From: a virus
Direction: 5' to 3' (one strand)
Length of the DNA stretch: 25,871 nt
IMG/VR virus record: IMGVR_UViG_3300033141_003137
The first letter of the stretch is position 1. Each line of letters starts with the position of its first letter. The position numbers and the translations under genes were made by a program. The notes below the pieces were generated by a model, which saw only the letters and a list, made by a program, of their open reading frames with translations, was not told the origin of the DNA and did not search any database. Positions 22,717-25,745 of this stretch are shown piece by piece.

Positions 22717-22754
22717 GACACCACTACGAGGGGGCTGAGGATTTGTTGAGGGCC
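22717..22754 (-). promoter_or_regulatory. Class B element (CCTCAACAAAtcctcagcccCCTCGTAGTGG, then 5 nt to ATG)
   Basis: Consensus match. Confidence 0.55.
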
Positions 22755-22765
22755 TGGGTCGTTTT

Positions 22766-23065
22766 TCAGCTTTGGCCTGCGAAACCACCGATCTGCTCCC
22801 AGCCGGAGCCGCCGTGAGAGGGACACGATCCGGGACCATACCAACGGTCATGAGGATTGGCTGTATAGCCCCTCACACGGCGCTCAGAGGGTCTATGGGC
22901 CAAGGACAAGCCCCAACCCTCCAGCTCGACCCGGAGCCGCTTGATGCTGGTCTGGGTGGCCACTGAGAGGGCCTGGAGGTCAGCCGCGGTGAAGACCTCG
23001 ACCTCATCGTCCATGAGGAACTCGACGAAGGCTTCAACGGACTCGAACTCAGGGGCGTTGTCCAT
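22766..23065 (-). CDS. hypothetical protein (about 100 aa)
   Basis: MDNAPEFESVEAFVEFLMDDEVEVF... Coupled to the upstream gene's stop. No class B element of its own. Confidence 0.4.
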   Translation of the reverse strand: MDNAPEFESVEAFVEFLMDDEVEVFTAADLQALSVATQTSIKRLRVELEGWGLSLAHRPSERRVRGYTANPHDRWYGPGSCPSHGGSGWEQIGGFAGQS

Positions 23066-23067
23066 GG

Positions 23068-23604
23068 TCAGCTCCACGTGATGTTGGTGGCCCCTCGGGT
23101 GGCGGCCAGCTCGACGAGCGAGGCGAACCGCTCGATGCGATCCCGAAGGTCGTCCTCGGTGAGGGCTCCGCCGTGGGAGCGGACGGGCCGCAGCTCGACA
23201 ACACCGTCCTCGCCGGTCCTGGGAGCCCCGTAGAGCGTCTCTGAGGCTCGGGTGTACCCAGAGAGGCTCTTGCGAGCCCGAGCCCTCATGAGGGCTCTAC
23301 GGGCCTCTGCGAGGGTGATCTCGCCCCAGCAATCGACCGTGAGTCCGAGGGCTCCGAGCAGCAGGACAGCGTTGCCCTCGTTGAGGTTCAGTGAGGGGGC
23401 GTCGTCGTTCTCGACGGGCTCCACGCCGGTGCCCTTGCAGGAGGGGCACTTGTCCCACGCATCAGCGGCCAGCTCGGCCCGATGGGGCTCCACGCCGTTC
23501 TGGAAGGCATCGCCGAAACACTCAGCGCCCTGGGCACAGAGGCAGGGCTCTTCCTTGATGGAAGTCTGGGTGTCGGTGACGTTGGCGGTGAAGGTGTAGC
23601 TCAT
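23068..23604 (-). CDS. hypothetical Cys-containing protein (178 aa)
   Basis: MSYTFTANVTDTQTSIKEEPCLCAQGAECFG...CPSCKGTG with GGGAG RBS. Confidence 0.5.
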   Translation of the reverse strand: MSYTFTANVTDTQTSIKEEPCLCAQGAECFGDAFQNGVEPHRAELAADAWDKCPSCKGTGVEPVENDDAPSLNLNEGNAVLLLGALGLTVDCWGEITLAEARRALMRARARKSLSGYTRASETLYGAPRTGEDGVVELRPVRSHGGALTEDDLRDRIERFASLVELAATRGATNITWS

Positions 23605-23645
23605 GGTCGCTCCCACTACGCGGTAGCCTCAGGTTTGTTGAGGGC
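23605..23645 (-). promoter_or_regulatory. Class B element (CCTCAACAAAcctgaggctacCGCGTAGTGG)
   Basis: Consensus match. Confidence 0.55.
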
Positions 23646-23991
23646 TATCTTCCCGTGCGTACTCGTTGGGGTCTTCGACGGTGCGAACGGGGACCGTGCA
23701 GTCCCGGTCGAGGAAGAGGACAGTGCCGGGCTCGACAGCCGGCTCCCAGTTGCCCGCGTAGACGACGAACGTGTAGACGCCCTGGCCGTCCTGGTCCTTC
23801 ATGAAGCCGTGGGTGCAGTCGGCGGCCGGGTAAGCCTGGCCGTTGCTGACCACGTAGCCGGCCCGAGCAAGGGCCTTCTCGACTTCGTAGGAGGTAGCGC
23901 AATCGGCCTCGTCGCCGTCGTTGAGACGGTCGATGCCGGTGGCGAGGGTGCGAAGAATGGCCGGGGTGAGAAGTGCGATGTTGTTGGACAT
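23629..23991 (-). CDS. hypothetical protein (120 aa)
   Basis: MSNNIALLTPAILRTLATGIDRLNDGDEADC... Confidence 0.5.
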   Translation of the reverse strand: MSNNIALLTPAILRTLATGIDRLNDGDEADCATSYEVEKALARAGYVVSNGQAYPAADCTHGFMKDQDGQGVYTFVVYAGNWEPAVEPGTVLFLDRDCTVPVRTVEDPNEYAREDSPQQT

Positions 23992-24028
23992 GTCAGCACT
24001 ACGAGGCGGGCTCGGGTTTGTTGAGGGC
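23992..24028 (-). promoter_or_regulatory. Class B element (CCTCAACAAAcccgagcccgCCTCGTAGTG, 5 nt to ATG)
   Basis: Consensus match. Confidence 0.55.
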
Positions 24029-24036
24029 TCGACCGA

Positions 24037-24276
24037 TTATCGGGACGCCAGCTGCTCGGCGTAGTCGTTGGCCTGGCTCGTGGCGGAGGTCAGGGCGGCG
24101 GTACCGGCGCGGAAACCGCGGCCGTAGGGGCTGTCGAACACGCCTTTGGTGACACCGAGGACACCCTCAAGGGCCTGGGGGCAGGTCATGCCCTTCACGG
24201 CGTCTTTGAAACCGTCGAGGTACATGGTGGTGGGGTCGGTGTTGATGGCGTCGGCTGGGTTGCTTTTGTTGCTCAT
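24037..24276 (-). CDS. small hypothetical protein (79 aa)
   Basis: MSNKSNPADAINTDPTTMYLDGFKDAVKGMTCPQALEG... Confidence 0.45.
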   Translation of the reverse strand: MSNKSNPADAINTDPTTMYLDGFKDAVKGMTCPQALEGVLGVTKGVFDSPYGRGFRAGTAALTSATSQANDYAEQLASR

Positions 24277-24312
24277 GTCGGTACTACGAGCTGGGGTCGA
24301 TCATGTTGAGTC
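24277..24312 (-). promoter_or_regulatory. Class B element (ACTCAACATGatcgaccccaGCTCGTAGTA)
   Basis: Consensus match; most diverged copy. Confidence 0.5.
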
Positions 24313-24781
24313 TCTCGACAACTTTTTCGCCGATTCGGCTGTAGGGCTGCCCTTCCTTCCAGTTGCTGAGCAGGGGCACGAGGGCGTCCGTCAGGATCCC
24401 TCGGACGGCCATGAAGCTTCCCTCCCACTTGGCCTCTTGCTTGGGCGTGAACTTGTCGCCGTGAACCCGACACTCGCCCTTGAGCTTCTCGAAGAGGTTG
24501 TGGATGTCGTCCACGACCATCTGGAGGTCGGCCACATAGACCTCGGGGGGCAGGGGCTTGGCCTTGCCACACTCGAAGTCCACGTCGCCGGACCAACCAC
24601 GGCTATCAACGACCTTCTTGCGACCGTCGAAGACGGCCCAGATGTAGTCCTTGGCCGTGTCCGTGGTAGCCGTTTCCAAGGCTTCCCGCTTCGAGGGGTG
24701 ATAGCTCACGCCGGCCCAGGCCCCGGTTACAGCTTGCTGGATGCGGACGGAGAAACGGCTGTCGGAGTTCTTCTTGCTCAT
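24284..24781 (-). CDS. hypothetical protein (165 aa)
   Basis: MSKKNSDSRFSVRIQQAVTGAWAGVSYHPSKREALE... Confidence 0.5.
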   Translation of the reverse strand: MSKKNSDSRFSVRIQQAVTGAWAGVSYHPSKREALETATTDTAKDYIWAVFDGRKKVVDSRGWSGDVDFECGKAKPLPPEVYVADLQMVVDDIHNLFEKLKGECRVHGDKFTPKQEAKWEGSFMAVRGILTDALVPLLSNWKEGQPYSRIGEKVVERLNMIDPSS

Positions 24782-24819
24782 GATCTCACTACGAGGCCGG
24801 GACTCAGATGTTGAGCCCC
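24782..24819 (-). promoter_or_regulatory. Class B element (GCTCAACATCtgagtcccggCCTCGTAGTGA, 4 nt to ATG)
   Basis: Consensus match. Confidence 0.55.
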
Positions 24820-24832
24820 GGCCTCTCTTTCT

Positions 24833-25708
24833 TCACGCAGCCTTCGAGACAGCCTTGTCGGCGGCCTCTTCCAGGGCCTCGATGATCTCTTTGGCAGCCT
24901 TGGCGATCCGGCTTGCGCTCTTCTTCAGGCCCTCAGCCGCCTTGTCGCCCTTCCAGTTGGCGACGTAGGCGAAGCTGTAATCGGCGGTGTCCAGCCCGAA
25001 GTGGTTGCACACGATGAAGGCGACCGACTCGGCTTCCAGCTCGCGGTCACCGCGGCTCTGCTCGTCCCGGCTGAAGTCCGCGTGGAGCTTGCTGTGGGCG
25101 ATCTCGTGGGCCAGGGTCTTGGCTTGTTGGGCTTGGCTATCGGAAGAATCGGTGGCGATGAACTTGCCGATGCAGTCATAGTAGCCGTGTGCCAGGCCGG
25201 GGATGACCTCGGAACGAACCGGGACGCCCCGCTTCTCGCTGTGGGCCTTGAGGGCCGCGTACAGGCCGCTGTCGCCACCTTCGAGGGGCTGACAAGGCAT
25301 GGGCAGCTCTTCACCGTCCGTCTGGCTCACGTCGAAGACGGAGACGGTGCGGAAGAACGCGAGAACCGAGGTCTCTTCGCCGGTCTTCTCGTTGGTCTCC
25401 TTGCGAAAGCAGGGGGCCAAGATCTTGATGCTCTTCTCGCCTTTGCGGACCTGGCGGTCGTTGTCCTGCCACTTGCGGAAACCCATCACGATGCTGGCTT
25501 CGGGGCACTGCATCGAGATCAACATCGTGTTGTTCCAAGAGTAGCGGTAGAGGCTCGCCTGGAAGCGGAGCCACTTGGCCCAACCCTCGGTCGTGCGAAC
25601 ACTCTCGACGCCCTCTTCGAGACGTTCAAGAAGCCCCTTGACCTCAGCCTTCTTGGCTTCGACGGACTTGGCGTTGCGGTGGCCCTTCTTGGTGTTTCGC
25701 TTGGTCAT
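24833..25708 (-). CDS. ardC: ArdC-like anti-restriction protein (N-terminal ssDNA-binding domain + C-terminal HExxH metallopeptidase-like domain)
   Basis: WAKWLRFQASLYRYSWNNTMLISMQ in the N-terminal part and TLAHEIAHSKLH (HExxH) in the C-terminal part. 291 aa. Confidence 0.6.
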   Translation of the reverse strand: MTKRNTKKGHRNAKSVEAKKAEVKGLLERLEEGVESVRTTEGWAKWLRFQASLYRYSWNNTMLISMQCPEASIVMGFRKWQDNDRQVRKGEKSIKILAPCFRKETNEKTGEETSVLAFFRTVSVFDVSQTDGEELPMPCQPLEGGDSGLYAALKAHSEKRGVPVRSEVIPGLAHGYYDCIGKFIATDSSDSQAQQAKTLAHEIAHSKLHADFSRDEQSRGDRELEAESVAFIVCNHFGLDTADYSFAYVANWKGDKAAEGLKKSASRIAKAAKEIIEALEEAADKAVSKAA

Positions 25709-25745
25709 GTCATCACTACGAGTTAGGGCCTCGTTTGTTGAGGCC
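25709..25745 (-). promoter_or_regulatory. Class B element (CCTCAACAAAcgaggccctaaCTCGTAGTGA, 4 nt to ATG); the 5' part can also fold as a 7-bp hairpin GGGCCTC/GAGGCCC
   Basis: Consensus match. Confidence 0.55.

Follow-up and report, generated by a model that had tools for sequence, protein, structure and literature searches.

In this study we analysed class B, a repeated element of two conserved blocks that lies upstream of small genes in the viral sequence record IMGVR_UViG_3300033141_003137 (one stretch of 25,871 nt, in the following termed the window). Class B is most likely a two-block promoter whose transcription start falls on the A of the ATG start codon. RNA polymerase would initiate on this A, so that each small gene preceded by the element would be transcribed as a separate leaderless mRNA. 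The explanation that we favour, taken as a whole, comprises a bipartite promoter of bacterial type, leaderless mRNAs, a sigma factor resembling those of the extracytoplasmic function (ECF) type, and cassettes of hairpin, promoter and ORFan. We consider this combination probable. Leaderless mRNAs are an addition which was not part of the original prediction, an earlier description of the same stretch.

Class B copies in the window

The original prediction listed eight class B copies, and all of them were confirmed at their coordinates. Searching for CTCAACAAAC-N10-CTCGTAGTG with at most three mismatches resulted in six matches in the window and in none in 100 dinucleotide-preserving shuffles, and a looser regular expression recovered an additional copy at 24283-24310. 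As a non-circular check we built a position matrix solely from 20 sites of the related metagenome contigs L006-L008. On the window this matrix found exactly seven sites with 22-47 bits, with 8.5 as the best value of 30 shuffles, and beyond those seven no site in the window exceeded 8 bits. The copy at 24283-24310 has an A as ninth base and the plus-strand copy at 2464-2491 carries the block CTCGTAGAC, the geometry being as in the other copies. The latter is the eighth copy and has a gap of 11 nt between the blocks; the predicted fixed spacing of 10 nt holds for the other seven. A distance of 4-8 nt to the ATG had also been claimed, which is only approximately right: it amounts to 5 nt after CTCGTAGTG in five copies and to 9 nt at 23604, and the copy at 11306-11333 has no nearby ATG. 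The element precedes six of the seven complete genes between 22153 and 25708, in agreement with the claim that almost every gene of the array has one. The copies and associated features are given below, numbered with the A of the ATG as +1; the upstream block is referred to as the -35 block and the downstream block as the -10 block.

25715..25742, minus strand: class B copy 1, core at -34..-7 (CTCAACAAACGAGGCCCTAACTCGTAGT); 40.7 bits
25708, minus strand: predicted start of copy 1, the A of the ATG of the ArdC-like gene 24833-25708
25752..25760, minus strand: A-tract block upstream of copy 1, GGAAAATCG at -52..-44; UP-element-like
24788..24815, minus strand: class B copy 2, predicted start 24781 at the ATG of ORFan 24284-24781; 30.9 bits
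24283..24310, minus strand: class B copy 3, predicted start 24276 at the ATG of ORFan 24037-24276; 32.7 bits
23998..24025, minus strand: class B copy 4, predicted start 23991 at the ATG of ORFan 23629-23991; 47.3 bits
23615..23642, minus strand: class B copy 5 (CGCGTAGT), predicted start 23608 (a G), ATG at 23604 after a 4-nt leader; 21.9 bits
22723..22750, minus strand: class B copy 6, predicted start 22716 at the ATG of ORFan 22153-22716; 28.6 bits
11306..11333, minus strand: class B copy 7, predicted start 11299, where CA is kept and no ATG is present; 35.9 bits
2464..2491, plus strand: class B copy 8, the most divergent (TCAAC-N17-CGTAGA, T at -1); ATG at 2498
22766..23065, minus strand: the sole complete gene of the array without the element; GGAG Shine-Dalgarno sequence, abuts the upstream stop codon

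The orthologue of this last gene in L007 does have a class B element. In copy 3 the gene 24284-24781, which lies upstream, ends with the TAG contained in the -10 block CGTAGT (24284-24286, minus strand). The gene preceding copy 5 terminates inside the spacer, and its final codons encode the -35 block. The predicted promoters overlap coding sequence in what is a very compact array.

Anatomy of the element and predicted transcription start

For the sequence logo we aligned 27 sites from the window and the close relatives L006, L007 and L008, whose ArdC proteins are 88-91% identical. The -35 block is (GGG)CCTCAACAA, in which CTCAACA at -34..-28 is invariant, including the AAC core at -31..-29 (27/27), and is followed by an A at -27 in 81% of the sites. 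The -10 block CTCGTAGT occupies -14..-7. Here, CGTAG at -12..-8 is invariant, with CGT at -12..-10 in 27/27 sites, and the C at -14, the T at -13 and the T at -7 are each conserved in 93-96%. A discriminator of 6 nt separates CGTAGT from the ATG; it ends in a C at -1 that is present in all 27 sites, and 26 of them have an A at +1. Between AAC and CGT lie 16 nt in the 27 sites; the copy at 2464 has 17 nt. This gap is largely unconstrained, with a partial C-rich bias at -20..-18. Further upstream, the logo displays G-rich positions at -38..-36 and an A-tract at -51..-47 within an UP-element-like A-rich block at approximately -52..-44; GAAAATCGA was found again upstream of ardC in L001, L007, L008 and L009. 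Comparison of the orthologous ardC upstream regions (protein identity 88-91%) showed that only GGGCCTCAACAA, CTCGTAGT and CATG are invariant, whereas the 10-nt spacer and the distal flank diverged. Two invariant blocks on either side of a diverged spacer suggest the footprint of two protein-contacted DNA blocks.

In the original prediction TAGTG was read as the -10 element with a 17-nt spacer. With this reading, the hexamer would end only 4 nt before the ATG. Therefore, we revised the register to CGTAGT at -12..-7 and AAC at -31..-29 with a 16-nt gap, which places the predicted -10 element at a normal start-site spacing. In leaderless genes of Deinococcus the -10 element lies 6-7 bp upstream of the open reading frame (ORF) (PMC12340547). 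The same geometry is found here, as the ATG is located exactly at +1 in 24 of the 28 sites from the window and L006-L008, giving the order CGTAGT, 6 nt, ATG without a Shine-Dalgarno sequence. The 6 nt leave no room for such a sequence in the element-bearing genes, and operon-internal genes without the element have a GGAG, GGAGG or AGGA Shine-Dalgarno sequence.

The position of the start is indicated by those copies in which element and start codon are separated. In copy 7 the C at -1 and the A at +1 are retained although there is no ATG, and the gene 10528-11142 (minus strand) begins 157 nt downstream, at 11142, with its own AGGAG Shine-Dalgarno sequence after a leader spanning 11143..11299. 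Where the ATG is displaced by 3-4 nt (23604; L006:4797; L008:95), the C at -1 and the purine at +1 stay in register with the -10 block and not with the ATG. Retention of these two bases with a displaced or absent ATG, together with the 157-nt leader, argues for a transcription start and not for a translation signal. Moreover, a scan for canonical sigma-70 promoters (TTGACA-17-TATAAT, at least 9 of 12 matches, with A2 and T6 of the -10 element) resulted in no site in 22000-25871. The proposal that the element is a promoter recognised by protein and not an RNA hairpin is thus supported by the invariant blocks and diverging spacer at ardC, the A-tract, the C at -1 and purine at +1, the copy at 157 nt and the lack of a sigma-70 promoter.

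A signal acting on RNA or translation, i.e. a start-associated sequence or a processing site in a polycistronic transcript, would likewise be expected immediately 5' of the start codons in an array of non-structural genes that all point the same way, as described for the start-associated sequence (SAS) of mycobacteriophages (PMC3203893), and the hairpins of some copies could be RNase targets. However, the element is devoid of a Shine-Dalgarno core, one copy lies 157 nt from a gene with its own AGGAG, and the C at -1 and purine at +1 are kept when the ATG shifts. Two blocks, an unconstrained spacer and an upstream A-tract are features of DNA recognition, and no pairing is conserved throughout the class (50.7% versus 48.0%, see below). 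Besides, the SAS contains AGGAG (PMC3203893), which is missing in class B. We regard a signal acting on RNA or translation, and with it the SAS alternative of the original prediction, as highly improbable. Pairing of the element with the 3' end of 16S rRNA was dropped as a candidate; the resemblance is same-sense and not complementary.

ECF-like signature in sister clades

Sister clades of the element were located through ArdC. Four clades share xAAY-N16-CGTAGT(A) in the same register and differ in the flanks of the -35 block, which read CTCAACAA, CCCAACA, TCCGAAC and CTGAATTT. The arrangement is CTCAAC-N16-CGTAGT in the clade of the window, TTTTCyCCCAAC-N16-CGTAGTAGGGGC-ATG in L002 and L004, and TTCCGAAC-N16-CGTAGTAGGGGC-ATG in L198, while L001, L009 and L200 carry CTGAATTT with GAAT in the matching register. 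All three sister clades thus retain AAC or AAT plus CGT in register. In L198, nine of ten sites fall on gene starts which had been called independently by the source pipeline.

Promoters of ECF sigma factors are characterised by AAC in the -35 and CGT in the -10 element, as in the sigma-W promoter TGAAAC...CGTA (PMC5758882), by a spacer of 16±1 nt, and by a common CGTC-type -10 combined with a group-specific -35 element (PMC3426412). Class B has both the bipartite AAC/CGT motif (PMC5758882) and the 16±1 nt spacer (PMC3426412), and its AAY-N16-CGTA core matches in sequence the recognised promoter signature of ECF (group 4) sigma factors. Given the constant -10 block and the clade-specific -35 flanks, our best guess is that the host core RNA polymerase would use an ECF-like sigma factor, for which the mobile element may itself carry the gene. 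An unchanged -10 next to -35 flanks that vary by clade is the product expected of co-evolution with sigma region 4, which suggests a factor carried by the mobile element. Phage-encoded sigma factors are known from phiEco32 and phage 7-11 (PMC8948821).

Following this line further, we tentatively propose a scenario that we consider rather doubtful in its full extent. Large phage-like elements (contigs up to 441 kb) would carry their own ECF-like factor, too divergent for Pfam, whose -35 preference radiated without any change in the -10 (CGTAGTA) or the leaderless geometry, so that orthogonal pairs of sigma factor and promoter would have arisen. In addition, the class B elements would act as recombination linkers through which insulated leaderless cassettes of anti-defence genes and ORFans are moved between genomes.

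An archaeal promoter with TATA box and B recognition element was rejected as a candidate, as the genes have GGAG Shine-Dalgarno sequences, a twin-arginine translocation (Tat) signal and a bacterial domain of the RNA polymerase alpha C-terminal domain (alpha-CTD) type, and the -35 block is not TATA-like.

Hairpins

According to the original prediction, the secondary structure of class B is not conserved. This holds for the class as a whole, in which the best common helix pairs 50.7% of cells versus 48.0% in shuffled sequences, but not for a subset: approximately 8 of the 28 copies form a strong hairpin (z -5 to -9) that spans about -44..-12 and has AACAA of the -35 block in its loop. Two of these are located around ardC.

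25725..25747, minus strand: hairpin of copy 1, GGGGCCTC-aacaaac-GAGGCCCT, overlapping the -35 block; -16.9 kcal/mol, z = -5.0
24793..24825, minus strand: hairpin of copy 2, 14 bp, directly 3' of the ardC stop codon, at -44..-12; -30.3 kcal/mol, z = -7.5

The hairpin that follows ardC is kept in the window, L006 and L007, where 95% of cells pair and both sides are changed at 3 of the 14 pairs; the pairing breaks down once the partner is shifted by one column. Preservation in three distinct sequences is suggestive of selection on this hairpin. It resembles a terminator or attenuator, and a G+C-rich hairpin over the -35 block, as present in about a quarter of the copies, would probably terminate or attenuate transcription arriving from the upstream gene. 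A terminator scan gave three sites, all on the plus strand, which equals the shuffle expectation (3.2), and none of them matches the class B hairpins.

The 157-nt leader downstream of copy 7 (11143-11299, minus strand) contains a long near-perfect inverted repeat (GGTCCGAAGCTGCCGA ... TCGGCAGCTTCGGGTCC) that encloses smaller hairpins. It folds with -63.9 kcal/mol at a z of only -1.6, and no Rfam match was obtained for it at a permissive threshold. This segment may be a regulatory leader.

Gene cassettes

The gene order 3' of ardC varies among four close relatives (the window, L006, L007 and L008). Most differences consist of a single ORF that is present, absent or replaced and that starts with a class B element. 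The window lacks cassettes F11 and F12, L006 lacks F7 and has orf102 in place of the orf79 of the window, and relatives have an additional 61-aa cassette at the position of copy 5. Exceptions are orf311 (L007) and orf66 (L008), each of which occurs in one relative only and without a class B element. Insulated cassettes of terminator, promoter and ORFan, differing between related genomes at the elements, would result from such an organisation.

Cassette breakpoints at the elements are also what would be expected of a site serving mainly as a repressor, operator or stoperator-type site or as a recombination site at cassette boundaries, with incidental promoter features. The asymmetric repeat in a single orientation relative to transcription and the conserved GGG (-38..-36) and CCC (-20..-18), which exceed a minimal promoter, point in the same direction. 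However, such a site does not require the single-base register to the ATG observed in 24 of 28 sites. As for an integron-type site, the RYYYAAC core is loosely matched by the 5' half of the element, but a complementary GTTRRRY partner is missing and the AAC lies in a hairpin loop; for want of a complementary core, an integron attC was rejected. We therefore consider a mainly regulatory or recombinational site improbable, although a regulator could bind the element besides the polymerase.

Class A element and genomic context

A second repeated element of the window, class A, consists of CCGGTGTA[G/T] with TGTA 13-14 nt before the start codon, which puts TA at -12/-11, the ordinary -10 position.

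1272 (plus), 3929 (plus), 7482 (minus), 11669 (minus), 15123 (minus), 15990 (minus), 17065 (minus) and 19954 (plus): class A starts

An inverted partner, TACACCGG, is frequently located upstream of class A, and the perfect palindrome GGATCACGTGATCC (in 7483-7535) lies between the divergent genes 7482 (minus) and 7536 (plus). Judged by its position, class A is likewise a candidate leaderless arrangement, and it looks like a second promoter class, of primary-sigma type and offset by 2 nt from class B.

The window has a G+C content of 61% and encodes mostly ORFans. Rfam and tRNA scans of the window gave no result, and a near-identity DNA search against 50,697 phage records gave no match. Recognisable products include the ArdC-like anti-restriction protein with a metallopeptidase domain (24833-25708) and a microbial PARG (13337-14116, minus strand). 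A 903-aa protein (17139-19850, minus strand) contains the shoulder and repeat domains of the major vault protein (Pfam 3e-24, 1e-8) and has full-length homologues of 37% identity in uncultured megaphage genomes of 462 and 735 kb (LR756500, LR756501, LR756503), accessions that have been cited as megaphages (PMC9723777). This vault-like protein is common to huge phages of very different G+C content. The records LR756500 and LR756501, which share it, were useless for the study of the motif, as LR756500 has a G+C content of 24%. The 360-aa protein downstream of the plus-strand copy 8 (2498-3580, plus strand) has Cys-rich repeats resembling HNH/endonuclease VII (PHROG 2.6e-12) and an alpha-CTD-like domain at its C-terminus (Pfam 3.6e-6); possible roles are those of a homing endonuclease or of a transcription factor that binds DNA.

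Homologues of ArdC with 64-100% identity (P0001-P0016) were found in metagenomes only, some of them on contigs of 89-441 kb that are crowded with small genes lacking annotation, and among viral contigs the protein matched one distant locus of low G+C content. Contigs of 441, 184, 133 and 89 kb underlie L001, L002, L004 and L198. The window holds no virion gene. Based on the large contigs of the ArdC relatives and the megaphage homologues of the vault-like protein, the replicon is probably a phage of very large size or a comparable extrachromosomal element.

The surroundings of ardC are rich in candidates for counter-defence, as in L198 (Acb5, directed against the cyclic oligonucleotide-based antiphage signalling system (CBASS), CYTH and GmrSD_N; 159-575 and neighbours). 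Further candidates are the microbial PARG of the window as well as NUDIX, HD and HicA from other relatives, and class B regions may be anti-defence islands. Two otherwise different proteins of the window, 11721-12158 (plus strand) and 21042-21821 (minus strand), have the N-terminal motif KIASPQ(E/D)LQA(E/D)L...A...PSR/PDR in common. A motif of this type is also located at the C-terminus of a 141-aa protein (L200:13837-14262) and is a recurrent short module.

Recognition of the predicted promoter

The suggestion of a dedicated sigma factor is plausible in view of the ECF-like AAC-N16-CGT arrangement; the search for a sigma or RNA polymerase gene was negative. In the window this search covers 26 kb of an element that possibly exceeds 130 kb. 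One protein deserves mention here: L001:16569-16796 (plus strand) encodes a 75-aa stand-alone sigma-70 region-4 protein 6.5 kb from ardC on a 441-kb contig. By tblastn it has no homologue in the window or the other related loci. It might modulate -35 recognition in that clade.

Several points weigh against the explanation that we favour. Both the start site and the promoter activity are derived from sequence alone. No gene for a sigma factor or RNA polymerase was found among the 42 proteins of the window or the 36 ORFs of L006 and L007 (Pfam, PHROGs). As regards sigma factors and polymerases, the precomputed Pfam labels of L001, L002, L004, L198 and L200 show only the 75-aa region-4 protein of L001, and a regular expression for the sigma-4.2 sequence signature gave no match. 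A class-wide hairpin was ruled out by the pairing values given above, and canonical intrinsic terminators were rejected, as no U-tract follows the hairpins. Moreover, very early expression is expected for ArdC-like anti-restriction genes, and this agrees less well with a requirement for a factor that has to be made first. The G-rich discriminator of the sister clades (AGGGGC) is better known from contacts with primary than with ECF sigma factors.

A host sigma factor is a serious rival, particularly as early expression is expected of anti-restriction genes. In that case the promoter would be read by the host's own holoenzyme, with its primary or an alternative sigma and no element-encoded factor, and the -35 flanks would reflect different hosts. 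The failure to find a sigma gene in any sequence searched is in line with this, as is the expectation that ardC and other anti-defence genes (Acb5 in L198) are expressed immediately on entry, and an A-tract at the UP-element position together with a G-rich discriminator would suit a normal holoenzyme. However, primary sigma factors need an A at -11, where the class B -10 block has a G. The sigma-70 scan of the array was negative, and with class A (TA at -12/-11) the window already has a promoter-like class that looks to be of the primary-sigma type. In addition, an exact-pattern scan of 185,579 species genomes (15 exact bases) yielded, among the matches listed, single and chance-level ones only. 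Taken together, recognition by the host alone is possible, but we consider it somewhat unlikely.

This pattern, CTCAACA-N13-CTCGTAGT, has 58 matches in IMG/VR and at least 120 in species-representative genomes, in both cases one per contig. Among the matches listed, only L026 and L063, which represent one near-identical sequence of 47% G+C, have an ATG in register. As the exact-pattern matches are due to chance, neither a host nor a cultured relative was identified from them.

Alternatively, class B could be the promoter of an RNA polymerase encoded by the mobile element, single-subunit or multisubunit as in phiKZ and AR9, which might enter the cell together with the DNA. RNA polymerases of their own are encoded by some jumbo phages (PMC7598289). 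The relatives reside on contigs of 133-441 kb, a protein of the window has homologues in megaphage genomes of 462-735 kb, and early anti-defence genes would be served without a host factor. Nevertheless, a polymerase gene was not seen in about 150 kb of related sequence. The known promoters of phage polymerases consist of one contiguous motif close to the start. Class B, in contrast, is composed of two blocks; its AAC and CGT cores are 16±1 nt apart, and an A-tract occupies the UP position. A polymerase of this kind appears unlikely to us, and a host core enzyme with an ECF-like sigma remains the reading we prefer.

Significance

If the promoter reading is true, class B would provide the exact transcription and translation starts of dozens of ORFans in uncultivated giant phage-like elements. 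It would also allow gene calls to be corrected, for example in L198 and L004. The motif start near 11615 in L198 (called gene 11525-11920) and near 8142 in L004 (called gene 8088-8315) differs from that of the gene caller. Furthermore, the element would mark a regulatory class to which anti-restriction genes and, probably, further anti-defence genes belong, and it would predict a missing specificity factor. Clade-specific -35 elements with a constant -10 would represent a natural co-diversification of promoter and sigma factor inside mobile elements, and cassettes of hairpin, promoter and leaderless ORF would extend the concept of promoter-early stem-loops (PeSLs) beyond T4-type coliphages. 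Class B combines known themes, namely an ECF-type promoter signature, leaderless expression and cassette shuffling, in a new setting, and no known principle is overturned.

Comparison with known systems

Similar to ECF promoters such as those of Bacillus subtilis sigma-W (TGAAAC-N16-CGTA) and ECF41 (TGTCACA-N16-CGTC), class B is bipartite with an AAC core, CGT(A) and a 16±1 nt gap. Its -10 is common and its -35 clade-specific, as the latter is group-specific in ECF promoters. However, a cognate sigma or anti-sigma gene was not found in the sequences searched, and the conserved blocks are longer (CTCAACAA, CTCGTAGT). Whereas ECF factors control a small stress regulon, dozens of class B copies would drive ORFans of mobile elements, from starts that lie on the ATG and would give leaderless mRNAs.

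The leaderless promoters of Deinococcus-Thermus and Actinobacteria share with class B a -10 element ending 6 nt before the start codon and the lack of a Shine-Dalgarno sequence (PMC12340547). They differ in that the primary sigma recognises a TANNNT -10 element, in many cases with no -35 element, while class B has CGTAGT and a strong -35. In this respect class A of the window (TGTA at -14) is nearer to that type than class B.

The SAS of Cluster K mycobacteriophages is a single 13-bp block, GGGATAGGAGCCC, with AGGAG, located 3-7 bp before the starts (PMC3203893). Like the SAS and the extended SAS (ESAS), class B is a short asymmetric repeat a few bases 5' of the ATG of non-structural genes, in one orientation and conserved in related phages (PMC3203893). 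In contrast, it consists of two blocks 10 nt apart, is unrelated in sequence, has no Shine-Dalgarno sequence and includes one copy 157 nt from the start. Membership of class B in the SAS was rejected, since only the location near the start is common to both.

In the PeSLs of T4-type phages, a promoter is combined with an AT-rich region upstream of it and with a GGGG...CCCC stem-loop, which possibly overlaps the -35 element; PeSLs flank ORFans and mediate modular shuffling (PMC2839356). As in the PeSLs of RB49 and phi1, repeated promoter motifs stand before ORFans in plastic regions (PMC2839356), an A/T-rich stretch lies upstream of the -35, and a G...C stem-loop is able to overlap the -35. Insertion, deletion and replacement of cassettes between close relatives likewise occur at the elements, although this does not account for every difference here. 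PeSLs have a sigma-70 consensus and a Shine-Dalgarno sequence, whereas class B has neither. In addition, only about 8 of 28 class B copies form a strong stem-loop, while all copies have the promoter-like part. By analogy, class B cassettes are best regarded as a functional analogue of the PeSL and not as a homologue.

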